From positions 76,396 through 140,395 of the forward strand of contig DIDS01000032.1 of the NCBI GenBank assembly GCA_002418265.1: a stretch of DNA of 64,000 bases, read 5' to 3'. Positions 348-63,401 of the stretch are shown one piece after another (the first letter of the stretch is position 1; each line of letters begins with the position of its first letter). The notes below the pieces were generated by a model. That model saw nothing but the letters and a program-made list of their open reading frames with translations. It had not been told where the DNA came from and made no database searches. The stretch is from Acidimicrobiia bacterium UBA5794. GTDB taxonomy: Bacteria; Actinomycetota; Acidimicrobiia; Spongiisociales; UBA5794. The translations under genes were made by a program, and so were the position numbers.

Positions 348-1280
348 TCACGCATTCACCAGCACAAGGTTGCCGACGCTGCGTCCGGCGCCCATGACGG
401 GTTGGTTGAGTTGTGGATCCAACGTGGTGCGCATGGCATCGGTCAACATGCCGAGCCGATCAGCGACATGGAGCGCAGCTGAGCAAGCCACGTCGCCGTC
501 GCCGGACATGGACTTGGTCGCGATCGCGACGCCATGTCTCACCATTGCATATGATCCTTCTGCGCCACCTTTCTGTGGCCCTCCCCACATGGCCCCGATT
601 CGGCCATTTGCAGCAACGTTGTCCGTGATGAGCGATGGGAACCGCGCCATGACATCCGCAATGGGTTCCATCTCCTCTTCGGTGTCGAGCCTGATGAACG
701 CCTTTGCGAGTCCTCGGATCGAACCACGCAACGTCGGAGCTCCGCAGCCGTCAACGCCAACTGGCAATGGGTTGATGCCGGTGAACTCGTGAACGATTTC
801 GACGATGGATGTCTGGATCGGATGGTTCGGTTCCAGATACGTGTCGAGATCCCAACCTGTGTGCACGCATGCGGCAAGCCACCCGGCGTGCTTTCCCGAA
901 CAGTTATGGAGGATGGACCGCCTGGAGCGGTCCCCCTTTGAAATCAGGTCGGCATTTGCGCGCCGTGCGAGTGGACGGTCTGGAGTTGTGCGTAACGATG
1001 CCTCCGTGATACCCGCATTGCTGAGAATCTGGCGGACGATCGCGATATGAACGGGGTAGCCATGGTGGCTGGCGCATGTCAGAGCAAGGTGCTCTGGCGG
1101 TAGGACAAGACCCGTTCGTCTGGCAGCGAGCGCCTGAAACGGTTTGATCGCCGATCGGTAGTACATGGGTCGGTCGGGATTGCCAGAGGTGAACAGCTCC
1201 CGCCCATTGGCATCAAGAGCGATGGCGTCGACGTCGTCGAACGATTCGGCAAGCCCGGATCGGACCCTTGCAAACCGCAT
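348..1280 (-). CDS. Asparaginase_II-family L-asparaginase
   Basis: 310 aa. Overall similarity pattern to Rhizobium-type asparaginase (PF06089), including the HNCSGKHAGWL motif region. Clean ORF in the same orientation as downstream neighbours. Confidence 0.7.
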   Translation of the reverse strand: MRFARVRSGLAESFDDVDAIALDANGRELFTSGNPDRPMYYRSAIKPFQALAARRTGLVLPPEHLALTCASHHGYPVHIAIVRQILSNAGITEASLRTTPDRPLARRANADLISKGDRSRRSILHNCSGKHAGWLAACVHTGWDLDTYLEPNHPIQTSIVEIVHEFTGINPLPVGVDGCGAPTLRGSIRGLAKAFIRLDTEEEMEPIADVMARFPSLITDNVAANGRIGAMWGGPQKGGAEGSYAMVRHGVAIATKSMSGDGDVACSAALHVADRLGMLTDAMRTTLDPQLNQPVMGAGRSVGNLVLVNA

Positions 1281-1286
1281 GACAGC

Positions 1287-1850
1287 TCAGTTCGCCGAAA
1301 GCAGTTCGTCTGCGTCCGCTGCACCTTCGCGGTAGCGACGCGTCAACTCCGTCGTGATGATCTCATAAGCGTCGTACACGGCACGCCGCTGATCGGAGAC
1401 TTCGCGTTCAGCAGCCCCGAGCCCGTCGCGAATGGTGACAAGTTCACTGTCTTGGAGAAAGGGGAGTCTGGCGAGGAAGTCATCGGCAAGTGCCCTGTCG
1501 ACCTCTCTCCGCCCTGCCCCTGCAAACTCGGGCGTATCGACCGATAGCTCGCGGTCGAGCGGATTCGATGTGTGGCTCGCCGATCCATCGCTCAAGATCT
1601 CGGGAAGCGCCTCGATCAGTGACCGGGACTCGGTGCCCGCTCTGCGTCGCATTTCGAAGTCGAGGAGGTCCATCCGACCATGGAGCACTCGCCGGTAATA
1701 GGAGAATTCGGTGTCGAGCTCGTCGAGCATCTTCCGACGGTTTCGGATCTCGTCAAGAGCAATCTCGTCAAGCCCCTCGGTGAAGGCTGGGTCCATGACC
1801 TGATCAATTCTTCTGCGGTGCTGTTCCATCTGTGCTCCTTGAACCCTCAC
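1287..1850 (-). CDS. conserved hypothetical coiled-coil protein (possibly RsiG-like anti-sigma, speculative)
   Basis: 187 aa, highly charged/helical, two long helices rich in E/R/D. 6 nt upstream of the asparaginase gene. No catalytic motifs recognised. Confidence 0.45.
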   Translation of the reverse strand: MRVQGAQMEQHRRRIDQVMDPAFTEGLDEIALDEIRNRRKMLDELDTEFSYYRRVLHGRMDLLDFEMRRRAGTESRSLIEALPEILSDGSASHTSNPLDRELSVDTPEFAGAGRREVDRALADDFLARLPFLQDSELVTIRDGLGAAEREVSDQRRAVYDAYEIITTELTRRYREGAADADELLSAN

Positions 1851-1908
1851 AAGTTAGCAAGCCGGACGACCGACCTCGACACCATTGACTGAGTCAGCGC
1901 CCTGGCCG

Positions 1909-3063
1909 TTAACAGACCGAGCGGACCGTCGGATAGGGGTTGACGGCCACACCACCCGGTCTGATTTCGAAGTGGAGGTGCGGTGAGGTGTACCGGGCAT
2001 TTCCGGAGTTTCCGAGGAATCCAACAACGGTTCCCTTGGAAACCCGCTGGCCTGAACTGATGTTCGAGGGATGTCCCTCGAGGTGGGTGTAGTAATACAC
2101 AACACCGTTGTCTGCATAGAGGTGGGTTGAACGTCCCCCGAGAGAGTTGGACGAGAACTTGACGCGCCCGTCTGCGACCGCGAGAACGGGTGTGTTGCGA
2201 GCGTTGAACATGTCGACACCCTTGTGGGTTCTCCCACCGGAGCGGCGAGCACCCCAGGTATTTGAGAACGATGCGCCACCCTGGACGGGACAGATGAATC
2301 CTGGCGTCGTGGCGGGGTCGGCTCCGCCAGCTCTTCCGGGTGCCTTGGCCGCTTTTTCTGCCGTCTGTCGCTTGATACGATCGTCCTCGACCTGCTTCTT
2401 CCGGATCTCTGCGCGCAGCTCATCGATTGCGTCAGCGAGTGCAGCGTCGGCGTTGTCGAGGATGGCCTGCCGCTCCTCATAAAGCTGGTTGATTTCGTCC
2501 ACCAGGGCTGCGGCCTTGTCCTCGGCGACCTTGACGACGGCCTTCTGTTCCTCGAGCTCTACCGTTGAGCGGTCAACCTGGCGCGAGATGGCTTCAAGAT
2601 TCCCGAGTGTTGCAAGCTCCGATTCGGCTGCTCGGTCCATGAGGGCTTGTGACGTGACGAGTTCCTGGATACTTCCGGCCGAGAACGCGGAACCGATCAT
2701 GGATGTCTGACGTCCACCGGTATAGGCATCGATGACGAGCTGGCGGGCCGTCCTTTCGATATCGGCTGCCTCACCGCGATACCGAGTCACAGCCTCATCC
2801 ATCTTGCCGAGTCGATATTGGAGGTCCGTGTGTTCGGCGTGAATCGCCTCGTATTCAGCAATTGCAGCGTCAAGGCGCTCGGACGCTGCAACGTACTCGG
2901 CGTAGGCAGCCGACTGCTTTGCCTCCGCCCTGGCCTTGGCTCTGGCTGCAGCATCGACGTCGCTTTGGGTTTGGGCGGACGCGGCGATCGGGACAATCGA
3001 AAGGAGGGCGATCGCCAGGAGGAGTGTCAGCACGCGTTGAACGCTGAATCGTGACATGCCCAA
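1909..3063 (-). CDS. secreted M23 (LytM-domain) metallopeptidase with N-terminal coiled coil
   Basis: 384 aa. N-terminal signal peptide (LTLLLAIALLSIVPIAASA), long coiled-coil region, C-terminal LytM domain with HKGVD ... HLHFE metal-binding motifs. Confidence 0.8.
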   Translation of the reverse strand: MGMSRFSVQRVLTLLLAIALLSIVPIAASAQTQSDVDAAARAKARAEAKQSAAYAEYVAASERLDAAIAEYEAIHAEHTDLQYRLGKMDEAVTRYRGEAADIERTARQLVIDAYTGGRQTSMIGSAFSAGSIQELVTSQALMDRAAESELATLGNLEAISRQVDRSTVELEEQKAVVKVAEDKAAALVDEINQLYEERQAILDNADAALADAIDELRAEIRKKQVEDDRIKRQTAEKAAKAPGRAGGADPATTPGFICPVQGGASFSNTWGARRSGGRTHKGVDMFNARNTPVLAVADGRVKFSSNSLGGRSTHLYADNGVVYYYTHLEGHPSNISSGQRVSKGTVVGFLGNSGNARYTSPHLHFEIRPGGVAVNPYPTVRSVC

Positions 3064-3110
3064 GGCAGGCTAGCGAGGGAGTTCGGGAACCGGACCAGGT
3101 TTCTGGTGGT

Positions 3111-4106
3111 CTACCCGAAGAACCAGACCGCCATCCAGAACAGGGGAGAGGCCAGGACTGCCCCGTCGAACATGGCAAGGGCGCCAGGTGCGTTCTCGGT
3201 GTGGACGATGGATCCGGTTCGAAGGGTCGATCCGAGAGCACGTCCCCCGATCACGCCGGCTGCTGCAGCCACGCCGCCAAGAAGTCCAGCGGCGACGTCA
3301 AGCTCGGAGATAGCGAATCCGGCAATCAATCCACCAATGAGGGCACCAAGAAGGGCTCCCACATTTGGATCGACTGATTGGATGGAGTCGCCGTAGGCGC
3401 CGGCGAGGAATGATCCGACGAGAGCGAAGGCCGTGACGAGTACGAAGGCCAGCACTGCGTACGAACCGATCAGCCTGATGAGTACGAGGCCAGCAGCCGC
3501 TGACGATGCAAGGATGGTGACCAGCGCGGTTGCGGCTGTGGTTCGAAAGTCCCGGTGCGCCTTGTCGAAGATTGGCCACGACACCGCAACGATGAACCCG
3601 AACGCGATCCCACCGGCAAATCCGTCGAACCCCCACGCGTAGGCGGCCGATGCCGCGACCGTCACTCCGATCATCGGCGGGTAGACGACAAACGAGTCTC
3701 GCGATGTTGAAGCGGTTTCGAAGGCATCCCAGATCCAGGCGATGATTGCGCCAACCGCAACGACCACAAACCACTGCGGATCTGCCCAGGCAACCGCGAG
3801 GAGGGCAGCAATCAGTGCAACCGACAGGATTCCGGGGATGTCGACTACGGACGCAGTGGTAGTTGCTCCACCCGATACGGGAGGGATCAACGCAATCTCG
3901 TCGGACGCGGAGATCGCCGTGGAGAGTTCAGCCTGTTCGCCGTTGACCCACACTCCGGCCGACTTGATGCCGGCCGCAAAGCGATCACCGAATTGCGTCG
4001 ATGCGCTGTCGAGCAGCTCCGCGACGGTGGAGGCATCGATGTCTACAGAATCGGTTCCCGCTGACTCGCGGAGATTGGCGAAGAGTCGGAGTGTGGCCAT
4101 GGCCAA
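3111..4106 (-). CDS. MoaD/ThiS-like beta-grasp domain fused to a polytopic membrane domain
   Basis: 331 aa. First ~85 aa match the MoaD pattern (MATLRLFANLRE ... IALIPPVSGG) ending in the diagnostic GG. This is followed, without a stop, by ~245 aa of Gly/Ala-rich predicted TM helices. Confidence 0.6.
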   Translation of the reverse strand: MAMATLRLFANLRESAGTDSVDIDASTVAELLDSASTQFGDRFAAGIKSAGVWVNGEQAELSTAISASDEIALIPPVSGGATTTASVVDIPGILSVALIAALLAVAWADPQWFVVVAVGAIIAWIWDAFETASTSRDSFVVYPPMIGVTVAASAAYAWGFDGFAGGIAFGFIVAVSWPIFDKAHRDFRTTAATALVTILASSAAAGLVLIRLIGSYAVLAFVLVTAFALVGSFLAGAYGDSIQSVDPNVGALLGALIGGLIAGFAISELDVAAGLLGGVAAAAGVIGGRALGSTLRTGSIVHTENAPGALAMFDGAVLASPLFWMAVWFFG

Positions 4107-4194
4107 AGCGTAGCGCCATCCACGATCGCGGCCGTGAATCAGGTGTCATGCAATCTCAAATGATGATTGTGTCGTCACCCCCATATTCGGATTG

Positions 4195-5115
4195 TCATGT
4201 GCCGCCTCCGAGCAGGTTCATGTCACGCAGCGCGCTGATCGGCTCATCGAAATCGGTTGCGTCGTAGGCGATGAACAGGTTCTGTCTCACCCGTCGCAGA
4301 GCCGATCCCGGCATCGTGATGTCGCGCCATGTCGCAAACGCCGGAGATATCGCAAAGGCAGTGCGATCGGTTTCGGACACGATCTCGATGATTGTCCCGA
4401 GTCCCGCCCCATCGGCAGCGGCTGCCGTTGCCATCAACATGTTGAGGAATCCGTGGCGGTAGATGCTCAGGGCTTCGTCGAAGTGACGGACGGGTTGATG
4501 GAGACCTGCGGTTGCCTTGTAGGGAAGACCGGCATCGACGCAGGACTTGATGAAGACGGCAAGCTCCTCTGCGGTGGGGAAAAGGTCTGAGGTCGCCCCG
4601 CCGCATCGGAGTTTCGCTCCACCGACTCGCCCTGCTCGTTTGATGACGTCAGCAATGCTGCGGACCTGTCCTTCGATGTTCGCCGACGGCGTCACCTCCA
4701 GGAACGCAACAACGTCGGGGCTGATCGAACCAACCGTGGTGAAGAGCCGTTCGATTCCATCAATCGTCGGATCAATGATGCGAGCTTCGGCAGCTGAAAC
4801 GGTCATCGCAGGCTCCATCTCAGCGTGGAACGCCGCGGCGAGGTCGGCCGATTGCGGGGCATCGAGATCGAAGGTGGCGCTTACCTCCCACGGCACTTCG
4901 CCAGCAACCATCGTTGCCTGGGCCACTGCGGCGAGTTCTTCGAGTTGCGAGGCCCGGATGAGGAATCGGCCCACAACCCACGAGGCCTCCGAGGCACGTG
5001 CTTCGCGGTAACCAGCAACGGCATCACCCACACTCAGCGACGCTGGAGGAAACACACCGCCATAGTCAACGAGGGCAGCGAATGCCGATGTTCGTGCATC
5101 AACGACGAGTCTCAT
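4195..5115 (-). CDS. conserved hypothetical protein
   Basis: 306 aa clean ORF with codon usage typical of the window. Contains AKLRCGG and KATAGLHQP motifs suggestive of a TIM-barrel-type enzyme. Family not recognised. Confidence 0.45.
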   Translation of the reverse strand: MRLVVDARTSAFAALVDYGGVFPPASLSVGDAVAGYREARASEASWVVGRFLIRASQLEELAAVAQATMVAGEVPWEVSATFDLDAPQSADLAAAFHAEMEPAMTVSAAEARIIDPTIDGIERLFTTVGSISPDVVAFLEVTPSANIEGQVRSIADVIKRAGRVGGAKLRCGGATSDLFPTAEELAVFIKSCVDAGLPYKATAGLHQPVRHFDEALSIYRHGFLNMLMATAAAADGAGLGTIIEIVSETDRTAFAISPAFATWRDITMPGSALRRVRQNLFIAYDATDFDEPISALRDMNLLGGGT

Positions 5116-5249
5116 GCATGCTCCCGCGGTGACGCAGCACTAGTGGCCTCTCGAACTTGGGCCAAGGTCGAGTCGCTGGAAGGTGTCAAGTGTAAAGAAT
5201 ATCTCGGTGCCTACAAGAGTCATGGGGCCTCGCTGTGTCGGTTGTCGGA

Positions 5250-6083
5250 TCAGTAGATTTCGGGGACGAAGGTTTGCTCGGTAATCGGGGGGCGGATGTA
5301 TGCCGAATCCTTTTGACGGGGAGGAAGCTCAACCCATCCCAGTGTCCGATCCTCGTATGGGATGAGCGAAAGCAGATGGCTGATGACGTTGAGGCGTGCT
5401 CGCTTCTTGTCTTCGGAGTTCACGACGTACCAAGGCGCCTGCTTGGTGTCGGTGTGGTCGAACATGATGTCTTTTGCCCGTGAGAAATCGACCCACCTGG
5501 TCCGTGATTCGAGATCCATACTCGAGAGCTTCCAGCGCTTTGTCTTGTCATTGATCCGACTTTGGAAACGGCGCTCCTGCTCTTCGTCACTCACCGAAAA
5601 CCAATACTTGATGAGGATGATCCCGCTGCGGACGAGCATCCGTTCGAACTCGGGACACGATCGGAGGAACTCCCGGTACTCCTCCTCCGTGCAAAACCCC
5701 ATCACGGGTTCAACGAGCGCCCGGTTGTACCACGATCGGTCGAAGAGGACCATCTCGCGTGCCGCCGGAAGCTGGGCGACATACCGCTGGAACCACCATT
5801 GCGTCTTTTCCCGTTCTGTTGGGGTTCCCAGAGCCACGATCCGACAGATCCGCGGATTCAGCCGCTCCGTGATTCGCTTGATCGCACCGCCCTTCCCTGC
5901 TGCATCTCTGCCTTCAAACACGACAACAACGCGGAGACCCTCGTCTCTGATGTAACTCTGGAGCTTGACGAGTTCTGTTTGGAGACGCGCGAGTTCCGAG
6001 TGGTAATACTTGTTCTTCAGCTTTGGTGGCCTTGCACGATTCGACCGTTCGATCGTTTCGGAGTCGCTTTCGTCGCTGCTCAC
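5250..6083 (-). CDS. ppk2: polyphosphate kinase 2 (PPK2) family
   Basis: 277 aa. Walker A-like GRDAAGKGG, PPK2 lid region and conserved blocks (FDRSWYNR, QAPWYVV). Confidence 0.85.
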   Translation of the reverse strand: MSSDESDSETIERSNRARPPKLKNKYYHSELARLQTELVKLQSYIRDEGLRVVVVFEGRDAAGKGGAIKRITERLNPRICRIVALGTPTEREKTQWWFQRYVAQLPAAREMVLFDRSWYNRALVEPVMGFCTEEEYREFLRSCPEFERMLVRSGIILIKYWFSVSDEEQERRFQSRINDKTKRWKLSSMDLESRTRWVDFSRAKDIMFDHTDTKQAPWYVVNSEDKKRARLNVISHLLSLIPYEDRTLGWVELPPRQKDSAYIRPPITEQTFVPEIY

Positions 6084-7110: not shown

Positions 7111-8505
7111 ATGGTCACTCAAGCGCCACCCATTACATCATCCACGACCCCGCCGACTGATTGGGATTTCGATACGAGTTGGTTCCCGTCCGATATTGGC
7201 GAGTGGGAGCCTTCCGTCGAGCTGGGGACGTACCTGACCGAGTTCGATCCGTCAGAACTCGAAAGCGGTGACCGCGTCAGGCTGCTCCAGGCCAGGGCTC
7301 GCCTCGCCTCTCACGTGACGGCGTCACTCCTGCGCGACATTGCCGGGGTGGTGGATGCATACGCTGTGGAGTGTCGCTTGGAGCCCACCGATGAGATCGT
7401 GTTGGACGATGCAGCGTCTGAGCTCCGCGCGGCGCTGCATCTAACACGTCGGGCAGCGGACGGATGGATACATCTCGCTCTTCGTCTGCGAAACGAGTTC
7501 CCCGACCTGTTGGCCCTCCTCAATTCGGGGGATCTCGATCTCCCTCGTGTACGGGCAATTGACTACGCCATCTTCGGATTACCGGACGAATACGCAAGAA
7601 ACGTTGTTGATGCGATCATTGACGATGCACCGCACCTGACAACCGGCCAGTTGGGTGCACGAATACGCAAGCTCATCATCGACCTGGAGCCGGAAGCCGC
7701 TCAGGACCAATACGAAGCCGCCGTCGAGCATCGTTCTGTTGTGGTGTACCCCGGTGAGGCCAACACGGCTGGTGTGAATGCAAGAAATCTTCCTCCCGAT
7801 CGTGTCGCAGCGATCTCGCGTCGCATTGACAAGATCGCAAAATCTCTGCGTACTGGCGGCGAGACGCGAACCATGGACCAGCTACGAGCCGATGTGTTCA
7901 TGGACCTGCTTGCGGGCACAAGCCACACGACGGTGGGACGAGGAGTTGTGGACATCCGAGTCGACCTCGAAACACTGACCGGGCTTGCTCAACGCTCCGG
8001 TGATCTGGGTGGGTACGGACCCGTCGTGGCCGACATTGCCCGCCAGACGGTGGAACAGAACCCGGATGCCGAGTTTCGATTCATGGTGACCGACCGCAAG
8101 ACCCGCCAGCTTGTGAGCCATGGAACCACCCGGAGGCGTCCGACCGCTGAGCAACGACGGCTCGTCGAGATGTTCCACCTGCGGTGTGTCTTCCCAGGCT
8201 GTCGCATGCCAGCGACGCAATGTGATCTTGATCACCGCATCGAATGGTTGGGGAATGGGCCTACGACGGTCGACAACCTTCTACCGCTTTGCAGACATGA
8301 TCACGTGATCCGTCACGATGCCGGGTGGAAACACTTCATCGATGATGTCGGCGACTACGTTTGGGTATCACCGCTCGGTGTCGCCTACCGACAACCACCA
8401 GACGACGACCAATTCCCAAATGCCGCGGCCATTGATGCCGTCGCTCCCGACGTGCCAGCAGTTGACAATGGTTCCGATCCCATGGGAACCCGAGCTCCTC
8501 CCTGA
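7111..8505 (+). CDS. DUF222 + HNH endonuclease protein (REP13E12-like)
   Basis: 464 aa. C-terminal HNH motif CVFPGCRMPATQCDLDHRIEW...NLLPLCRHDH after a long DUF222-like N-terminal region. Typical actinobacterial selfish-element-like protein. Confidence 0.8.
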   Translation: MVTQAPPITSSTTPPTDWDFDTSWFPSDIGEWEPSVELGTYLTEFDPSELESGDRVRLLQARARLASHVTASLLRDIAGVVDAYAVECRLEPTDEIVLDDAASELRAALHLTRRAADGWIHLALRLRNEFPDLLALLNSGDLDLPRVRAIDYAIFGLPDEYARNVVDAIIDDAPHLTTGQLGARIRKLIIDLEPEAAQDQYEAAVEHRSVVVYPGEANTAGVNARNLPPDRVAAISRRIDKIAKSLRTGGETRTMDQLRADVFMDLLAGTSHTTVGRGVVDIRVDLETLTGLAQRSGDLGGYGPVVADIARQTVEQNPDAEFRFMVTDRKTRQLVSHGTTRRRPTAEQRRLVEMFHLRCVFPGCRMPATQCDLDHRIEWLGNGPTTVDNLLPLCRHDHVIRHDAGWKHFIDDVGDYVWVSPLGVAYRQPPDDDQFPNAAAIDAVAPDVPAVDNGSDPMGTRAPP

Positions 8506-55432: not shown

Positions 55433-55837
55433 ATGAAAGTCGCATACATATTGAACATGCCGAAGGCGGCGAGCTACAAGGTTCAGAAGATGATCCTCCC
55501 ACAGCTCGAAGCTGGAACACATGGTGTCGAGGTGGTCGGGATGTTCTTTTTCGATGACAACGTCTGGGCACTCCGGAAGGGTGACCCGATCGGTGAACGT
55601 CTTGCAGCGGTCGCTAAGAAAACAGGCATGCTGCTCATGGGATGTGACATGTGCTCTCTTGAACGCAACCTTGCCGAAGGTGAACCACGCTGGTGCGACC
55701 CCGCGACCGGCGAGGGTCGGGAGAACCCTGCTGAGTGCGAACCGGCTGGCATGGTCGACGGTGCCCACGTGGGCTGTTTCCCTGACCTGTACGCGGCCCT
55801 TGCGGGTAACCCGCCCGATCAGGTCATATCGCTCTAG
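55433..55837 (+). CDS. DsrE/DsrF-like (YchN-fold) small protein at the head of the cox cluster
   Basis: 134 aa from MKVAYILNM. Beta-alpha pattern and LLMGCDMC cysteine pair reminiscent of the sulfur-relay DsrE family. Weak assignment. Confidence 0.4.
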   Translation: MKVAYILNMPKAASYKVQKMILPQLEAGTHGVEVVGMFFFDDNVWALRKGDPIGERLAAVAKKTGMLLMGCDMCSLERNLAEGEPRWCDPATGEGRENPAECEPAGMVDGAHVGCFPDLYAALAGNPPDQVISL

Positions 55838-55859
55838 GTATGCAACTAGGGTCGTAGGT

Positions 55860-56732
55860 ATGGCGATTCCTGATACGGTCGATGCGCTTGAAGCGGGATT
55901 GATGCAGCATGGCTACATCTCGGACCGTGGTTTGACCGTTGCGATTCACCTTGCCATCCAAATGGGGCGTCCTCTGTTCGTCGAGGGTGAGCCTGGCGTC
56001 GGTAAGACCGAGATTGCAAAGGTGCTCGCAGCGATCGCCGGTGCTGAACTCATCCGTCTCCAGTGCTACGAGGGTCTCGATGCCTCCCATGCCATCTACG
56101 AATGGGACTATGCCAAGCAAATGCTTGCGATCCGGATGCTTGAAGCCACCGGCAAGGATGTTTCGCAGACGGACATCATGAGTGAGGAGTATCTGGTTGC
56201 TCGTCCGCTTCTCAAAGCAATTCGGCGTGCGGCGGCCAGCGAGCCGACAGTGCTTCTGATCGATGAACTGGACAGGGCTGATGAGGAGTTCGAGGCGTAT
56301 CTCCTTGAGATTCTGTCCGACTTCCAGATCACGATCCCCGAGATCGGAACGGTGGCGGCGACAACACCCCCGATCGTGGTGATCACGTCCAATCGGACGC
56401 GCGAGATCCACGACGCCGTGAAGCGACGGTGCATCTATCACTGGATCGACTATCCGAGTGTTGAGCGTGAGATCCAGATTCTGAAGGCCAAGGCACCTGG
56501 CACCTCCGACGAGTTGTCGAAGCAACTTGCCATGGCCATGGAGAAGCTCCGGAGCCTTGACCTCTTCAAACCGCCCGGTGTGGCAGAAACGATCGACTGG
56601 GCGAAGGCTCTTGCCGTCTTGGGGGCTGACACCCTTGCCGCCGAGACCATCGATGCGACGCTCGGTGTCGTGGTGAAGTACGAAGAGGACCTTGCCGCGG
56701 TGAGAACCTTTGGCGTCGGATCGATGGAATGA
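55860..56732 (+). CDS. coxD: MoxR-type AAA+ ATPase (CoxD-like)
   Basis: 290 aa from MAIPDTV. Walker A GEPGVGKTE. Walker B LLIDELDRAD. Sensor region. Confidence 0.85.
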   Translation: MAIPDTVDALEAGLMQHGYISDRGLTVAIHLAIQMGRPLFVEGEPGVGKTEIAKVLAAIAGAELIRLQCYEGLDASHAIYEWDYAKQMLAIRMLEATGKDVSQTDIMSEEYLVARPLLKAIRRAAASEPTVLLIDELDRADEEFEAYLLEILSDFQITIPEIGTVAATTPPIVVITSNRTREIHDAVKRRCIYHWIDYPSVEREIQILKAKAPGTSDELSKQLAMAMEKLRSLDLFKPPGVAETIDWAKALAVLGADTLAAETIDATLGVVVKYEEDLAAVRTFGVGSME

Positions 56733-57912
56733 TGATCCGATGACATCCGATTCCATGTCGATCGGTGAGACCGCGGAAGTGAACTTGGTCATGTTCACGA
56801 GGGCGCTTCACGACGCAGGCTTCGCCGTCACACCACAAACGACCCGAGACCTTGTGAGGGTCGCTTCCATCATCGGACTCCATGTGGGAAACGATGTACG
56901 AAACGCGTTCTGTGGCGTTGTTGTGACGCGCCACTCCCAGATCGGACGCTTCAACGAGATCTTCGATCAGTTCTTCTCAGGTGGGGTCGTGTACCGGCTC
57001 GATGACGTGATGGATCGTGCGACCAAAGAGCAGACCGACCGCCGAATGCCACGATTGGCGGTCGCCGGTAGCCTCGATCAGGCTGACGGGGACGAAGTCG
57101 TCGAAGTGCCAAACGTCGTTGGGGGCTCGTACGGTGAGCGCCTTGTTGACGTCGACTTCGCTGACCTCAACGACGAGGAAGCTGCCGCGATGGCCGACAT
57201 GCTCGCATCGATGGTGTGGACTCCTTCGAGCTACCGATCGCGGCGGTGGATGCGGGCAAGCGGTGGATCGGTTCCAGACATGCGGAGAACCCTTCGCATG
57301 GTGACCGGACCGAAGGGTGATCTCATGCCTCTGGCGTTCTCAACGCGAAGACCCAAACAGCGGCCGCTCGTCGTCCTGGCAGATATCTCGGGTTCCATGG
57401 AGCGATATGCCGAGATGCTGCTCCATTTTGTCCACGGTGCCCAACACCGGTTCTCATCCGTCGAGTCGTTCGTTTTCGCCACTCGCCTCACGCGGATCAC
57501 CCGTCAGTTGCGCCGTAGAAACGCGGGCGACGCCCTCAAAGATGTGTCTCAAGTCGTTCACGACTGGTCTGGGGGCACACGGATCGGTGATGCAGTCGCT
57601 TCGTACAACAAAGATTGGGCCAGGCGGATTGGGGGAGGGCCCATCGTCCTCATCATCTCCGACGGGTGGGACACGGGCGATCCCGAGCAACTCGCGGTCG
57701 AGATGCGGCGTCTCGCCCGATCTGCTCACAGGGTCATTTGGCTGAACCCCCTCGCTGGCCACGTAGAATTCACACCAGAAGCGAGGGGTATGGCGGCAGC
57801 TGCCCCTTTCGTCGACGATTTGTTGGCTGGTGGCACTGCCCGTAGCCTGATCGAATTGGTCGATCTGTTGCAGATGGACCGTACAGAGCGAAGGAGCATC
57901 GCAGTCAGATGA
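56710..57912 (+). CDS. coxE: VWA-domain protein (CoxE-like)
   Basis: 400 aa. MIDAS-containing block [11 protein letters not shown] and C-terminal VWA fold. Confidence 0.8.
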
Positions 57913-58217
57913 GAGAAATCCTTGAAGTTAGGGACCGATGGACGGCTGAGGGCAAGGAGGTGGCCGTCGCCACCGTTGTGTCTGTCAAAGGCTCCGCACC
58001 ACGCGGAGTGGGGGCCAAGATGCTGATTTCCTCCGATGGCGAAATGGAGGGTTCGGTGTCTGGCGGGTGCGTCGAGAACGATGTGCGCGAACACGCTGCA
58101 GGTGTGCTTTCTACCGGCGAACCACGACTCGTGACATACGGCATTGCTGATGACGACGCGTTTGAGGTCGGGCTGACCTGTGGCGGCACGATCGAAGTGT
58201 TCATTGCACCATGGTGA
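57909..58217 (+). CDS. xdhC: XdhC/CoxI-family N-terminal domain (split ORF)
   Basis: 102 aa XdhC_CoxI N-domain ([21 protein letters not shown] ... GSVSGGCVE). It ends 7 nt into the next ORF, which carries the rest of XdhC in another frame. Confidence 0.55.
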
Positions 58218-58969
58218 ACCCGATCGTTGAGGCGGTTTCCGGTCTCAAGAAGGCAGAGCGCCTCGGGGCGATGATCTCGGTCATTGACGGTCCCGGGATT
58301 GGTGAGGCAGTCGTCATCGATCGCGATGACGGCATCGTCACAGGAGAGACCCCTGGTTGGTTCAGCGATGCCGTTCATGCCGATGCCACTGTGCTGATGG
58401 ATTCCGAGGAGAGCAAGGCGCTCGTCTACGACGACAGACGCATCTTCATCGACGTGATCGCCCCATCGCCGGTCATGATGATCTTTGGGGCTGGTCATAT
58501 TGCTCAGCCGCTGTCGCTCTTCGCTCGCGAGCTCGGATTCCGTGTCGTCGTGGCAGATGCACGAGCGGCATGGGCGACACCCGAGCGCTTTCCACACGTC
58601 GATGACCTGATCGTGGCGTGGCCGAACACGGTTTTCGAAACAGTCGTCCCTGACCGAAGAACCTACGTCGTGTTGTTGAGTCATGACAGCCGGTTCGAGA
58701 TCCCGGTCTTCGACGCAATCCACGGTGTTCCCGTTCGCTACCTTGGCGCAATGGGTTCACGACGCACCCATGGGCTCAGAGTGGACCGCCTCAAGGCAGC
58801 GGGATGGACCGAGGACGAGGTTGCTGCGATCCATGGTCCGATCGGTCTTGACCTCAAGGCCAAGACGCCGGCCGAGACGGCCATATCCATCCTTGCCGAG
58901 ATCATCCAGGTTCGATACGGCACGGGCTCCGCTGCTCCATTACGAGGTTCTGATGCCCCGGTTCATTGA
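58211..58969 (+). CDS. xdhC: XdhC/CoxI-family C-terminal Rossmann domain (split ORF)
   Basis: 252 aa. [11 protein letters not shown] Rossmann-like block and the XdhC C-domain. Confidence 0.6.
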
Positions 58970-58987
58970 CGAGCGAACGAAACGATC

Positions 58988-59560
58988 ATGAAGATCAATG
59001 AGGGATTCGTCGTCGAACGGCCGATCGCGGAAATGTGGCCGCTGTTCAAGGATGTCCCGGAACTGGCCCGATGTCTTCCCGGTGCTGAACTGACCGCGGA
59101 CCACGGAGACGGAAGCTATGACGGGAAGGTTTCCGTCAAGCTTGGCCCGATTGCCACTTCCTTCGAGGGGAAGGCAACGGTTGATTTCGATGAATCTGCC
59201 CACACCGCCAAGATCAAGGGCAGAGGCGTCGACAGATCCGGCGGCAGCCAGGGTCAGGTGATGGTCGATATCGCGTTGGATGAGAACGAGGAGCACCACA
59301 CCGCGGTGTCAATCGATGCGGAAGTGACGCTCGTCGGTCCGATCGCGCAGTTCGGAAGTACCGGGTTGGTGAGCGAGGTGTCCCGACGACTCATCGATGA
59401 ATTCTCCCAATGCGTGCACGCAAAGCTTGATGCCGAGACAGCGGAAGAGGCTGCTGCGGTGACCGCTGGTCAAGTCAAGGGGTTCTCACTCGTCGTTGCG
59501 AGCACCTGGAGTTCTCTCATCGGATGGCTCAAGCGCGTGTTTTCTCGTCGCCGTTCGTAG
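58988..59560 (+). CDS. coxG: CoxG-like SRPBCC protein
   Basis: 190 aa. CoxG pattern MKINEGFVVERPIAEMWPLFKDVPELARCLPGAEL. Confidence 0.75.
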   Translation: MKINEGFVVERPIAEMWPLFKDVPELARCLPGAELTADHGDGSYDGKVSVKLGPIATSFEGKATVDFDESAHTAKIKGRGVDRSGGSQGQVMVDIALDENEEHHTAVSIDAEVTLVGPIAQFGSTGLVSEVSRRLIDEFSQCVHAKLDAETAEEAAAVTAGQVKGFSLVVASTWSSLIGWLKRVFSRRRS

Positions 59561-59677
59561 TCGTTGAAGACTGCTCATCGTTGCACCTGCACACCGCTCT
59601 CGTTTGGCGTATCGTGGGGTCTGGCAGGGTCTGCGGCTCTGCCAAAGGTGGTTTCGATCGATTCGGAGGTTTGTGTC

Positions 59678-60178
59678 GTGGAAGTCAGCATTACCGTCAA
59701 CGGGGCGAAGCACAGTTCGGAAGTCGAACCCCGCCTCCTGCTTGTCCACTATCTCCGAGAGGTTCTTGGACTCACCGGAACGCATGTCGGCTGTGACACT
59801 GGCTACTGCGGCGCCTGCACCGTCATCGTCGACGGTATCCCGATCAAGTCGTGTTCGATGCTGACCGTTCAGGCTGACGGCTGCGAGGTTCGCACCGTTG
59901 AAGGCGTTGCAAACGGTCCCGAGCTCCACCCGGTCCAAGAGGGGTTCTGGGAGTGTCACGGGCTGCAATGCGGATTCTGCACCCCTGGCATGATCATGAG
60001 TTCCGTGGCGCTGCTTGAAAGGAACGCCAACCCTTCCGAAACCGAGATCAGACAGGGAATTGAGGGCAATCTCTGTCGCTGCACCGGCTATCACAACATT
60101 GTCAAGTCTGTCCAATATGCCGGGGCGAAGATGCGTGGTGAAGATCCGAAAGGTGCATCATCGGAGGTGGCATCGTGA
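59678..60178 (+). CDS. coxS: molybdenum hydroxylase small [2Fe-2S] subunit
   Basis: 166 aa from GTG preceded by [16 protein letters not shown] and [13 protein letters not shown] iron-sulfur motifs. The annotated longer ORF from 59564 is probably not used. Confidence 0.85.
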
Positions 60179-62550
60179 CCAGCACAAGCGTGATGGGCGG
60201 CATTGTCCGTCGCAAGGAAGATCCATCTCTCATCCAGGGAAAAGGTGCCTATGTGGACGACGTCAAGAGGACCGGCGAACTCGCTGCGGTCTTTGTGCGC
60301 AGTCCCTTCGCTGCTGCGACCATCACCAGTATCGATATCGAGGCCGCCAAAGCAGCCCCCGGTGTACACGCCGTCTACACCGCAGACGATGTCCGGCACC
60401 TCGGACCGAATCCTGCACAGGTTGCCGTCGGCACGCTTCGTCCTCTCCTGGCTGACGGAGCGGTCAAACATGTCGGTGAAGCGGTGGCGATGGTGGTTGC
60501 CGAGAACCGATATCTCGCACAAGACGCCGCCGACCTCGTCTTTGTCGATTACGAACCCGGTGAGGTAGTCGTTGATCTAAAGGATGCCTTTGCCGACAAG
60601 GTCAAGGTGCATGGCGATGCCTCCAACATCCTCCTGACATGGCACGGGCACGGTTGGTGGGAGGGCGTGATTGACCTCCCCGATCCTTCCCCCGGCATTC
60701 AGGAGGCCAAGGAACGCGACGACACCGTCACGGTCAGCCTCGAGATGGTCAACCAGCGGCTCCTCCCCACGGCGATTGAGCCTCGCGCGGTACTCGCAGA
60801 TTGGAACAGCGGCTACGGATCGGTTGAACTGTGGTCGAGCTCCCAGATTCCCCATGCTGTCGCGGGCGCTGTCGGCGTGACGTTTGGGATTCCATCGAAC
60901 AAGGTCAGGGTCGTGGCACCCGAGGTTGGCGGTGGCTTTGGCGTCAAGCTCAACGTCTATCCCGATGAGATCCTCGTGTGCTTTGCATCCAAGGAGCTTG
61001 GTCGGCCGGTGCGCTGGACCGAGACCCGGCGTGAGGCTGGATTTGCATCCACCCAGGGACGCGGCTGGGTCGGTACCGCAACGATCACCGGAACCGCCGA
61101 TGGAAAAATCCTTGGATACGAGCTTGAAGCGATCTGTGACATGGGTGCCTATTCGCACAACTTCACCGTGGCGGTCCCGCTGCTCGGGCTGTTCATCGCC
61201 GGAGGTCAATACAACTTCCCAACGTCCTATGCACTCCACTGCGTCGTAACCAACACCCAGACCACCGATGCCTATCGAGGTGCGGGGAGACCAGAAGCTG
61301 CTTACTACCTCGAACGGATCGTCGATCATTTCGCTCGAGAGATCGGGATGGATCCGGCCGATGTTCGCAAAGCGAATTATTGGAAGCCCGAGGACTTCCC
61401 CGTACAGACAGCCATCGGGCTCACGATGGACAGCGGCGACTACGAGAAGAACCTTGATGCGCTGCTTGATCGTGTCGGATACGAGGACCTCAAGGCGAAA
61501 CGAGACGCTGCCCGTGCCGAAGGCAGACTGCTGGGGCTTGGGCTGAGCACATACGTCGAGGTGTGTGGATTTGGCCCCTCTGCTCTTGCGGGACTCGGAT
61601 TCTCATGGGGTGCGTACGGTCTACCAACCGCGTTCAACGGGTCTGGTGTGGTCCGAGTCCAGCCAGATGGCACGTGTACGGTCACGATCGGGACCGGACC
61701 GAGCGGTCAGGGACACGAGACGACATGGGCACAGATTGTGTCGGACGGGCTTGGAATCGCAATGGACAACATCGAGGTCCACCATGGCGACTCAGTCGAC
61801 TTGCCGATGGGTATCGGCACCTTCGGTTCACGATCCATCGCGGTTGACGGAACCGCGACATTCGAAGCCACAGCACGGGTCAGGAAGAAGGCTGCAATCA
61901 TTGCGGGCCATCTGCTTGAGGCTGCACCCGAAGACATCCAATTCGCAGATGGCCGTGCGCACGTTGCTGGCTCTCCCGACCGGGCAGTTGAATGGGGACA
62001 GATCGCAGAGTCGGCGTATCAGCCACACACGTTGCCAGAGGGCGTCGAGGGTGGCCTTGAGTCTTCGGTTGTGTTCAGTCCTCCGAACGCCACATGGCCC
62101 TTCGGTTCACACATGGCACTCGTTGAGGTCGACCCGGAGACGGGTGACGTCGATCTCCTTGAGTATTGGGCCACGGACGATTGTGGCAATGTCATCAACC
62201 CGATGATCGTTGACGGACAGCTCCATGGTGGTATTGCTCAAGGTATCGCCCAGGCGCTCTATGAAGAAGCCATCTACGACGACATGGGCAACCTGCTCAC
62301 GAGTTCGATGGCCAACTACACCCTGCCTGTATCGACGAGTCTGCCCTTGTTCAGTCTCGACCGAACGGTCACGCCGACGGATGTGAACCCCCTTGGTGTG
62401 AAAGGTGTTGGCGAGGCTGGAACAATCGGTTCGGCACAGACCATCGTCAACGCGGTAGTGGACGCCGTGGCACATCTCGGCGTCAGACACATCGACATGC
62501 CTTTGAGACCCAAGCGGGTGTGGCAGGCGATTCAGGATGCAAAGGAGTAG
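60175..62550 (+). CDS. coxL: molybdenum hydroxylase large subunit, form II (AYRGAGR) CoxL-like
   Basis: 791 aa. Active-site loop [12 protein letters not shown] (form II, not the form I VAYRCSFR of bona fide CO dehydrogenase). MoCo-binding blocks. Confidence 0.85.
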
Positions 62551-62552
62551 CC

Positions 62553-63401
62553 ATGTACCCACCAAACTTTGACTACGTCGCTCCGACATCGCTCGATGAG
62601 GCGCTTGCCGCGCTCGCCGGTGCGGAGAATACCAAGGTTCTCAGCGGCGGCATGAGCCTGATTCCCCTCATGAAGATGCGATTCGTTCGCCCGACCACGG
62701 TCGTCGACATTTCCCGGATTCCAGGTTTGGATGACGTGACCGACGACGGCGACCACATCACGATCGGTGCAATGGTGCGTCACGCCACAACGGCATCACA
62801 CCCATTGGTCCAAGAGCACGCGTCGGCACTTGCCGAGGCAGCGAACGGAACCGCTGATCTCTTGGTGCGCAATCGAGGTACCACGTGTGGATCGTTGGCG
62901 CTCAACGCTGTTGCAGCAGATCAGCCTGGGGCAGCGCTCGCGCTCAACGCGACAATGCACGCAGCGTCAGTGCGCGGGACCCGTGAGATCGCAGCTGCCG
63001 ACTTCTTTCTGGACGCCATGACGTCCGCCCTTGCACCAGACGAGATCTTGACCAAGATCACGATCCCCAAAGGTGGCGTGTCCACCTATCGGAAGCTCGG
63101 TCGCAGGGGAGGTAGTTCCGACTACCCCATCGCCGCGGCCGCTGTGTGGGTTGACGTATCGGATGGGTCGGTTTCAGATGCCCGAATAGCTTTGAACGGG
63201 GTGTCATCGACGCCGTACCTTGCCGTCGGCAGCGCTGAGGCACTTGTTGGGTCCGACGGATCCGCGGACGCGATTGCTTCGGCCGCCTCCCATGCAACTG
63301 ATGGAGTCAACGTGCTCGAGGATCTCTACGCGACGGTTGCGTTTCGTACCCATCTTGCCGGTGTGTACGTTCGCAGGGCACTTGAGGATGTTCTCGCGTA
63401 A
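62553..63401 (+). CDS. coxM: molybdenum hydroxylase FAD-binding medium subunit
   Basis: 282 aa from MYPPNFDYVAP. FAD-binding blocks VLSGGMSLIPLMK and CGSLALNA. Confidence 0.85.
   Translation: MYPPNFDYVAPTSLDEALAALAGAENTKVLSGGMSLIPLMKMRFVRPTTVVDISRIPGLDDVTDDGDHITIGAMVRHATTASHPLVQEHASALAEAANGTADLLVRNRGTTCGSLALNAVAADQPGAALALNATMHAASVRGTREIAAADFFLDAMTSALAPDEILTKITIPKGGVSTYRKLGRRGGSSDYPIAAAAVWVDVSDGSVSDARIALNGVSSTPYLAVGSAEALVGSDGSADAIASAASHATDGVNVLEDLYATVAFRTHLAGVYVRRALEDVLA

Follow-up and report, generated by a model that had tools for sequence, protein, structure and literature searches.

Sulfur carriers of the MoaD/ThiS family are known in the form of small, soluble proteins whose partner enzymes are likewise soluble. 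In the described systems closest to the one presented here, such a carrier forms the N-terminal part of a longer polypeptide, with its di-glycine (GG) motif internal and a partner following in frame. MoaX (Rv3323c) of Mycobacterium tuberculosis is cut between Gly82 and Ser83, a cleavage that is needed for activity (PMC4326299), and the MoaD-MoaE protein of Deinococcus radiodurans is cleaved by DRJAMM (PMC8832034). Release of fused ThiS/MoaD mediated by JAB was predicted by Iyer et al. 2006 (PMC1779556). The partner in both fusions is soluble MoaE. Here we analyze a gene of Acidimicrobiia bacterium UBA5794, which belongs to the same phylum as the host of MoaX, an actinobacterium. The gene lies at 3111 to 4100 on the minus strand of a 64-kb stretch of contig DIDS01000032.1 (the window, meaning the whole stretch studied) and encodes a MoaD domain, a linker, and a CdsA-like membrane protein in a single frame. 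As in MoaX and MoaD-MoaE, the MoaD domain is N-terminal and its GG is internal, but the part of the window protein after the GG has no similarity to MoaE. The partner is instead a nine-helix membrane domain with the fold of CdsA, the cytidine diphosphate-diacylglycerol (CDP-DAG) synthase, and no molybdenum cofactor (Moco) genes are adjacent.

Residues beyond the GG are also known from QbsE of thioquinolobactin synthesis and from the CysO-Cys adduct, which is cleaved by Mec+; both are JAMM-processed sulfur carriers. The standalone orthologues of our MoaD domain resemble QbsE in this respect, in that many extend one or two residues past the GG, often with Cys first. Unlike the JAMM-processed carriers, the locus has no linked JAMM, E1, or biosynthetic enzyme gene. 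An N-terminal cytoplasmic beta-grasp domain joined to a multipass membrane domain is found in Actinobacteria in EccD of the ESX (type VII secretion) systems. In EccD the beta-grasp domain is of the YukD family and is followed by 12 transmembrane helices (Iyer et al. 2006), in an ESX context, whereas the domain here belongs to ThiS/MoaD, the membrane part has the CdsA fold, and no ESX-type Pfam families are present among the called genes that cover approximately positions 1 to 55,000 of the window. Classical surveys of prokaryotic ubiquitin-like domains list MoaD-MoaE, YukD-membrane, and Ubl-Cgi121 fusions, among others. Our literature searches retrieved no description of MoaD or ThiS joined to a CdsA-like or other polytopic membrane domain, in agreement with a first-pass annotation of the window, which had been aware of no such fusion. 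The carrier family, the membrane fold, and the principle of carrier-partner fusion are all known; the locus presents them in a new combination, with an apparently remodeled active site.

A conserved MoaD/ThiS domain with an internal di-glycine

The open reading frame (ORF) listed for this gene, at 3111 to 4106 on the minus strand, comprises 331 residues counted from a TTG codon at 4106. We assigned the true start to the ATG at 4100 because the orthologues are 329 to 330 residues long and begin with MA(T/R)LRLF, which corresponds to MATLRLF in the window protein. The resulting protein has 329 residues, with its stop codon at 3111 to 3113; residue numbers refer to the ATG start unless stated otherwise.

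The first-pass annotation had recognized a MoaD/ThiS beta-grasp pattern with its diagnostic GG in residues 1 to 85 and had proposed checking this region against sulfur-carrier profiles. Pfam, NCBIfam, and fold searches all retrieved MoaD/ThiS/SAMP1 and placed the domain at residues 1 to 78 (3867 to 4100, minus strand), ending in IPPVSGG. The Pfam ThiS model (PF02597) matched with an E value of 1.5e-11 and 45.1 bits against a cutoff of 22.5, over profile positions 2 to 76 of 76 and ending exactly at the GG (residues 7 to 80 in the TTG numbering), and all 52 members of an alignment of the family matched the same model. NCBIfam models aligned end to end at scores below their trusted cutoffs (moaD, 50 versus 66.15 bits; moaD_arch, 47.7 versus 49.5 bits; SAMP1, 42 versus 60 bits), the first of these being the MoaD equivalog for the molybdopterin synthase small subunit (TIGR01682). 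We built an AlphaFold2 model on the 52-sequence alignment, with a mean predicted local distance difference test score (pLDDT) of 92.5 and a predicted template modeling (TM) score of 0.78. The model contains a beta-grasp fold at residues 1 to 77, a disordered segment at 78 to 85, and nine helices at 91 to 328. When the model was searched against the PDB with Foldseek, its residues 1 to 77 matched MoaD (1fm0_D), SAMP1 (3po0), and mycobacterial MoaD (6jbz_B) at target-normalized TM-scores of 0.72 to 0.81, the value for 1fm0_D being 0.81, and the family profile retrieved PDB structures of SAMP1 and MoaD at E values of 1e-12 to 1e-8. Pfam gave no YukD match for the domain even at E values up to 10. 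These searches establish the N-terminal part as a genuine beta-grasp domain of the MoaD/ThiS family.

The GG is internal and the frame continues beyond it, as the first-pass annotation had stated. Gly77 and Gly78 (3867 to 3872, minus strand) are invariant in the 52 aligned family members as well as in the standalone orthologues, and 251 residues follow them in the primary product, so that the GG is not the free C terminus that adenylation requires. The first 12 of these residues (79 to 90, ATTTASVVDIPG; 3831 to 3866, minus strand) form a linker, which the model shows as disordered and which is hypervariable among family members, and the remaining 239 (91 to 329; 3114 to 3830, minus strand) form the helical membrane domain. 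In the 52-sequence alignment, the MoaD domain has a mean pairwise identity of 56%, compared with 32% in the membrane domain and 14% in the linker. P73, P74, V75, G77, and G78 are among the invariant columns. The linker varies from 10 to 27 residues in length across the family, and the residue directly after the GG is small in 48 of the 52 sequences (Ala in 30, Thr in 10, and Ser in 8) and otherwise Glu (3) or Gln (1).

An assembly or sequencing frameshift, with the MoaD protein in reality stopping after the GG, could create such an architecture and had been raised as a caution in the first-pass annotation. Cases of related kinds do exist in the databases. P0284, a 356-residue protein named "sulfur-carrier protein" by JGI, was considered as a second type of fusion and rejected, as its MoaD C terminus is out of frame and it looks like an annotation or assembly artifact, probably by frameshift, that merges MoaD with a separate CdsA-like gene; P0133, an apparent membrane-only protein, is a contig-end truncation of a fused gene. 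For the window protein, a frameshift is ruled out. Ten independent contigs encode the identical protein (NCBI [GCA_027494075.1, a 2.73-Mb contig], JGI, and Logan are the sources of those shown), there is no in-frame stop codon, and the AlphaFold model is confident over both domains. The search for orthologous fusions that had been suggested at the same time yielded >120 full-length, in-frame homologues with 64 to 92% identity, equal length, and the same Pfam domain. When the membrane part alone was used as a phmmer query against 1.84 billion cluster representatives, only 80 proteins were found, and each of the full-length matches (310 to 344 residues, in ~50 clusters with 23 to 51% identity in the membrane part) starts with a MoaD domain, whose PPV(S/A)GG ends at approximately residue 73 to 80, mostly at 78. 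The gene encodes a genuine, conserved two-domain protein of Acidimicrobiia, and its membrane domain represents a family without Pfam coverage that is almost confined to the MoaD fusion. Database entries label these 329-residue membrane proteins "MoaD/ThiS family protein," "molybdopterin converting factor small subunit," or "sulfur-carrier protein."

The membrane domain has the CdsA fold and an apparently remodeled site

The part following the GG had been described in the first-pass annotation as Gly/Ala-rich transmembrane helices. A polytopic membrane part is indeed present, but it is not generic: residues 91 to 329 form a nine-helix integral membrane domain with the CdsA (CTP_transf_1-like) fold. 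The sole significant membrane-protein match in a Foldseek search of the PDB was TmCdsA (4q2g_B; E value, 3.8e-3; probability, 1.0), with a target-normalized TM-score of 0.64 over 270 columns and 16% identity. Sequence similarity is insignificant. The Pfam model CTP_transf_1 (PF01148) aligned collinearly with the window protein over profile positions 5 to 190 at a nonsignificant 8.5 bits against a cutoff of 24 (E value, 2.2), no other Pfam model matched the membrane domain at E values up to 10, and searches of PDB sequences with the domain, both as a single sequence and as a profile, gave no match.

The number of Lys and Arg residues averages 5.0 on the predicted cytoplasmic loops versus 0.12 on the outer loops, which predicts an N-in, C-out topology like that of CdsA. 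The MoaD domain, the linker, and the loop with the conserved motif all fall on the predicted cytoplasmic side. The funnel of TmCdsA opens to the cytoplasm, and its C terminus is periplasmic (PMC4083444). The TmCdsA cavity is open to the cytoplasm and, through a second opening, to the inner leaflet, and the enzyme carries out nucleotidyl transfer to an oxyanion (PMC4083444). An Asp219-Asp249 dyad, strictly conserved in prokaryotic Cds, binds an Mg2+/K+ pair, and either D219A or D249A abolishes activity (PMC4083444).

The most conserved motif of the membrane domain, G286-R-A-L-G-S-T-L-R-T-G...P-G-A-L-A-M-F-D312-G313 (3162 to 3245, minus strand), appears to align with the CdsA signature GDxxESxxKR...DRxDG. 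Residues were mapped by a chain of alignments, from the fused domain to a separately encoded partner found in split loci (the split partner, described below), from there to E. coli CdsA, and from E. coli CdsA to TmCdsA (4q2e/4q2g); the fused domain was also aligned directly with E. coli CdsA. The motif register was identical in all of these alignments. The split partner aligned with E. coli CdsA at 4.5% probability, and hhalign of the fused domain against single-sequence E. coli CdsA gave 0.3% probability, with the motif in the expected register. By this mapping, G286-R287-A-L-G290-S291-T-L-R294 would correspond to G-Q-L-x-A-S-A-x-L in the split partner and to G-D219-x-x-E222-S223-x-x-K226 in TmCdsA, while A309-M-F-D312-G313 would correspond to R-R-L-D-S and D246-R-I-D249-G250, respectively. 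The fused domain would share with CdsA the C-terminal register G-x-x-x-x-S-x-x-(K/R) and the D-G at the M9 kink, with S291 in place of S223, R294 in place of K226, and D312-G313 in place of D249-G250. The position of D219 would be occupied by a nearly invariant arginine, Arg287; E222 would be replaced by Gly and D246 lost, and only D249 would be kept, as D312. The KD...PGHGG part of the Cds signature is missing from the fused domain, and the MoaD domain is an addition relative to CdsA. Because most of the metal-binding acidic residues of CdsA appear to be replaced, the membrane domain is probably not a CDP-DAG synthase. We infer that its pocket has turned from a metal-binding acidic site into a basic one able to bind an anion directly.

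A more direct role for the membrane domain was also considered, in which the CdsA-like domain itself activates or conjugates the MoaD C terminus, acting as a membrane-embedded nucleotidyltransferase that joins the GG tail to a lipid, comparable to the Atg8-phosphatidylethanolamine conjugate, with the fused form serving as a genetic anchor. The openings of the TmCdsA cavity to the cytoplasm and inner leaflet would suit such a role, and nucleotidyl transfer to an oxyanion chemically parallels adenylation of a carboxylate by E1. The basic residues in place of metal ligands, the lack of an E1 gene nearby, and the fused and split arrangements that link the two proteins are also compatible with it. 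We nevertheless regard this role as improbable. A CdsA-family enzyme acting on a protein has no biochemical precedent; the site for cytidine triphosphate and metal appears to be dismantled, which argues against nucleotidyl transfer; and the fused membrane domain is strongly conserved, more so than a mere anchor would need. There is an equally small chance that the CdsA-like protein is a membrane acceptor or conjugating enzyme for a ubiquitin-like protein, which admits the GG tail to its cytoplasm-facing funnel and couples it to a lipid that enters from the bilayer, or passes thiocarboxylate sulfur to that lipid, with the fused gene as a "hard-wired" form.

The two parts occur fused, split, and singly

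A scan of GTDB species genomes yielded 80 loci, nearly all labeled Acidimicrobiia or unclassified Actinomycetota, of which 11 are fused and 69 have a standalone MoaD. Clustering of ORFs from the related loci was noisy, with spurious antisense ORFs in high-GC DNA, and was used only as a guide; assignments were rechecked by tblastn and hidden Markov model searches. The standalone orthologues are 75 to 84 residues long, with 42 to 55% identity (examples among L017 to L085 are L023:4080-4316 and L063:8001-8237). Of the standalone proteins other than that of L084 (see below), 68 in number, 25 end exactly at the GG, 9 have one further residue, 33 have two, and 1 has six. The extra residues of these 43 proteins (CR, ST, CT, SR, AA, and others) begin with Cys, Ser, or Ala in 30 cases. 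Such tails would imply either C-terminal trimming or a function that has no need of a free GG.

In most standalone loci, an RsiG homologue follows within ~30 nucleotides of MoaD, but in ~18 of the 68 the next gene instead encodes a separate membrane protein of ~290 residues. Hhalign aligned the fused membrane domain with this gene product end to end over 213 columns (91.6% probability; E value, 8e-7), and a second, independent alignment gave 76% and an E value of 2e-5. Members encoded by the separate gene pass the gathering cutoff of CTP_transf_1 (24 bits), with scores of 30.4 bits for P0212, 34.6 bits for P0225, and 31.3 bits for P0303. In an AlphaFold model of the split partner built with database homologues (pLDDT, 74), the top four PDB matches were TmCdsA chains (E value, 3.8e-3; TM-score, 0.68), and the next match had an E value of 0.68. 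Judged by these alignments and models, the fused domain and the separate membrane protein are distantly homologous.

A true split within the fused-type family occurs at L090 (P0165), where the MoaD protein ends in ...PPVSGGDR and is followed by TGA TGA and, 4 nucleotides later, by a GTG that opens a 254-residue membrane protein; M23 and RsiG genes come next. The membrane protein also occurs without MoaD. Fused-type membrane proteins (loci L093 [1-1190], L094 [1020-2969], and L095 [1476-3955]; family representatives P0130, P0152, and P0193) have no MoaD-like sequence in the 420 nucleotides upstream; on the P0143 contig, no MoaD gene was called in the 172-nucleotide gap before the membrane gene, a statement based on gene calls only. 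A MaoC-like gene directly precedes the membrane gene at L093, where the downstream gene is unannotated, and an M23 peptidase gene comes next after the membrane gene at L094 and L095. The pairing of the membrane protein with M23 looks tighter than its link to MoaD. MoaD and the membrane protein thus make up a lineage-specific module of Acidimicrobiia with four known layouts: a fusion, a pair of adjacent genes, MoaD on its own, and the membrane protein on its own.

In a neighbor-joining tree of the MoaD domains, the fused forms and L090 make up one clade inside the standalone group. The MoaD of L068 is basal to all of the RsiG-linked and fused MoaDs, and it is the only one that sits in a moa operon (L068:5657-9337), where it is 46% identical and is arranged as MoaE-MoeA-MoaA-MoaD-...-MoaC. 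From its place in the tree, the fused clade may derive from a housekeeping MoaD. A further explanation is that the two parts have no functional link. MoaD would then be the molybdopterin synthase small subunit, which lost its stop codon and undergoes the usual processing, and the membrane protein would act independently, for example, with M23 in envelope remodeling. The related MoaD in the moa operon of L068 is consistent with this, as are the Moco enzymes of the organism (see below) and the occurrence of the membrane protein without an upstream MoaD gene yet with M23 wherever the downstream gene is annotated. Furthermore, the surrounding gene order (RsiG, MshA-like GT4, YbjN, ProC, and SAM_HAT) largely recurs across these Acidimicrobiia loci. 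We consider the absence of a link unlikely, though less so than lipid conjugation, given that adjacency to or fusion with a CdsA-like gene is found in two highly divergent membrane-protein subfamilies and that the fused and split-partner forms fall on separate branches of the MoaD tree. In addition, the fusion has been kept down to ~23% identity in the membrane domain, a persistence that would be unusual for a neutral accident.

Several contigs with an Acidimicrobiia-type locus (L006 [QQUL01000277.1], L024, L032, L061, L064, and L084) are labeled "Armatimonadetes bacterium" or "Bifidobacterium," and these labels, or the binning behind them, are probably wrong. The L006 protein is 92% identical to the window protein.

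Processing after Gly78 and a permanent tether are the leading explanations

Two explanations of the fusion stand out, processing after the GG and permanent tethering of the beta-grasp domain. We tentatively favor the first, in which the protein is a carrier-partner fusion processed after Gly78, like MoaX of M. tuberculosis, and regard the second as nearly as likely. Under processing, a peptidase that is specific for Gly-Gly and is encoded elsewhere would cleave the polypeptide after Gly78. The freed MoaD-GG would be adenylated and thiocarboxylated by an E1-like enzyme, and the membrane protein left after cleavage would be the equivalent of the protein that has its own gene in split loci. Removal of the one- or two-residue tails of most standalone orthologues would fall to this peptidase as well. 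The basic, cytoplasm-facing funnel of the membrane protein would dock the anionic C-terminal tail of MoaD, as a carboxylate or thiocarboxylate, beside a membrane lipid substrate.

Several observations favor processing. The linker varies freely but the GG and its flanking motif do not vary at all, and conservation is far higher in the carrier domain than in the membrane domain. This difference, together with the invariant GG, suggests constraint from conserved housekeeping or soluble partners such as E1 and MoaE. The short variable tails on most standalone orthologues resemble those of processed ubiquitin-like precursors and would imply a Gly-Gly-specific trimming activity in the class. A small residue after the GG in nearly all family members is compatible with cleavage but is not diagnostic of it. 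Direct precedents exist in MoaX and DRJAMM. Finally, a working MoaD would be needed in this organism because it encodes a Moco-dependent enzyme. The window contains, at 55521-63401, genes for a CoxD-like AAA ATPase, a CoxE-like VWA protein, a CoxL/xanthine dehydrogenase (XDH)-type Moco-binding subunit, and a CoxM-like flavin adenine dinucleotide subunit. Since the CoxL/XDH-type protein (60175-62550) binds the molybdenum cofactor, molybdopterin must be made in this organism, and a MoaD with a free GG has to come from somewhere. We also considered a link of the fusion to synthesis of the molybdopterin cytosine dinucleotide cofactor by CTP:molybdopterin cytidylyltransferase, prompted by these CoxL genes, and found no support for it, as the membrane domain has the fold of a lipid enzyme and the genes are ~56 kb apart.

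The alternative is that the protein is never cleaved and that the MoaD-like domain is a permanently tethered cytoplasmic beta-grasp module that caps, regulates, or recruits partners to the CdsA-like domain, comparable to the YukD domain on EccD. The GG tail would then be kept as a part that sits in the funnel of its partner or as a flexible hinge. EccD provides a precedent in Actinobacteria, and EccD chains were among the weak fold matches of our model (ranks 16, 19, and 28). According to experiments cited in Iyer et al. 2006, YukD does not become covalently attached to other proteins. The stability of the fusion over deep divergence, the lack of a protease or E1 gene nearby, and the blocked GG ends of most standalone orthologues, by which a free GG is perhaps not needed in this clade, also fit a tether. 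Other observations fit it poorly. Both glycines and the preceding PPVS are invariant while the adjoining linker is hypervariable, and in beta-grasp domains that do not conjugate, the di-glycine is usually lost. Evolution of the MoaD domain is much slower than that of the membrane domain to which it would bind. Moreover, natural splits and MoaD-only lineages show that the tether is dispensable.

The case for processing has weaknesses of its own. Cleavage is wholly inferred, and the invariant GG could be kept to bind a partner pocket and never be freed. No E1-like, MoaE, or JAMM genes were found in the 64-kb window or within 8 kb of the 11 fused loci by Pfam annotation of called genes, tblastn with E. 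coli MoaA, MoaC, MoaD, MoaE, MoeA, and MoeB, and a JAMM-motif scan, which returned only spurious-frame matches. The first-pass annotation had likewise seen no E1-like gene nearby. ThiF/MoeB matches and credible JAMM motifs were absent from the window and from 85 related loci, and moa and moeB genes were absent from the window and the fused loci. The alignments used to map the active site are individually of low probability. MoaD is found without the membrane protein in many lineages, and in a few the membrane protein has no MoaD gene upstream, so that the coupling of the two is not obligatory. The carrier may simply be, or derive from, a housekeeping MoaD, such as the related one in the moa operon of L068. 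Lastly, the data suggest no sulfur-containing lipid or other product.

Genomic neighborhood of the fusion

The genes flanking the fusion are those reported in the first-pass annotation, an M23 peptidase and a 306-residue protein, and only the former is a constant neighbor. The M23 gene (1909 to 3063, minus strand) encodes a secreted coiled-coil peptidase and lies directly downstream in every fused-type locus with a visible downstream gene; it is usually followed in fused loci by genes for RsiG and asparaginase II. We considered the M23 protein as the Gly-Gly protease and found this unlikely, as an apparent signal peptide, read from its N terminus, would place it away from the cytoplasmic GG. 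The 306-residue protein (4195 to 5115, minus strand) is unannotated, with no match in Pfam, NCBIfam, or PDB sequences. It was rejected as a partner because it is not consistently adjacent to the fusion. Its gene adjoins PPK2 both here and at L006, and a 287-residue unannotated gene occupies the same position after PPK2 at L004 and L005. A promoter and terminator scan of 1200-5400 was uninformative.

The RsiG-like protein (1287 to 1850, minus strand) belongs to the cyclic di-GMP-dependent anti-sigma family, and its gene usually comes directly after MoaD in the standalone lineages; in most Ilumatobacteraceae-type loci, rsiG begins ~30 nucleotides after MoaD. At L084:7986-8696, the MoaD and RsiG coding sequences read as a single 235-residue ORF (...PPVSGGAGDLAAMSLDELR...), either a real fusion or the result of a lost stop codon. 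RsiG studies make no mention of MoaD.

Other genes recur beside MoaD. A double-hotdog MaoC-like dehydratase gene lies just upstream, with spacing from an overlap to a gap of ~26 nucleotides, at L021:2903-3748, the fused locus L012:4011-4820, L081:4857-5732, and a few further loci. L081 (5984-6807), L055, L069, L074, L077, and L082 carry a nickel superoxide dismutase gene shortly downstream of MoaD; at L081 this gene, accompanied by an apparent maturation peptidase gene, separates MoaD from the M23/RsiG genes. Near 34 of the 68 standalone MoaD loci, and near none of the fused loci examined, a divergent gene encodes a YgjP/WLM-like metallopeptidase. We attribute this to shared gene order and did not use it as evidence.

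Elsewhere, the window carries genes for a cytochrome bc-type complex and an ATP-binding cassette transporter as well as two NADH dehydrogenase operons. At ~14000-51500, a cytochrome b/Rieske/cytochrome c cluster is accompanied by two nuo-like operons, one complete with NuoEFG and a second, shorter one without NuoEFG. A DUF222/HNH-type protein is encoded at 7111-8505 on the plus strand, between an S-adenosylmethionine hydroxide adenosyltransferase gene and a glutaredoxin-like gene; this family is familiar from actinobacterial mobile repeats.

Implications

Throughout one widespread, mostly uncultured bacterial class, a MoaD carrier is fused to, or encoded right before, a membrane protein with the CdsA fold. 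Recognizing this corrects a systematic annotation, in which 329-residue membrane proteins are labeled as MoaD/ThiS or as the molybdopterin converting factor small subunit. If the fusion is processed, the principle of a carrier fused to its client, as in MoaX, would reach a membrane client, and these bacteria would be expected to possess a Gly-Gly peptidase. If it is not processed, the protein would join EccD as a second membrane protein with a built-in ubiquitin-fold domain, and it would be the first to have retained the conjugation motif. Coupling of the tail or its sulfur to a lipid, should it prove true, would amount to a bacterial version of Atg8 lipidation or to a new pathway for making a sulfur-containing lipid. 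Whether or not the fusion is processed, the membrane domain constitutes a new branch of the CdsA superfamily that lies outside Pfam coverage and has an apparently remodeled active site.

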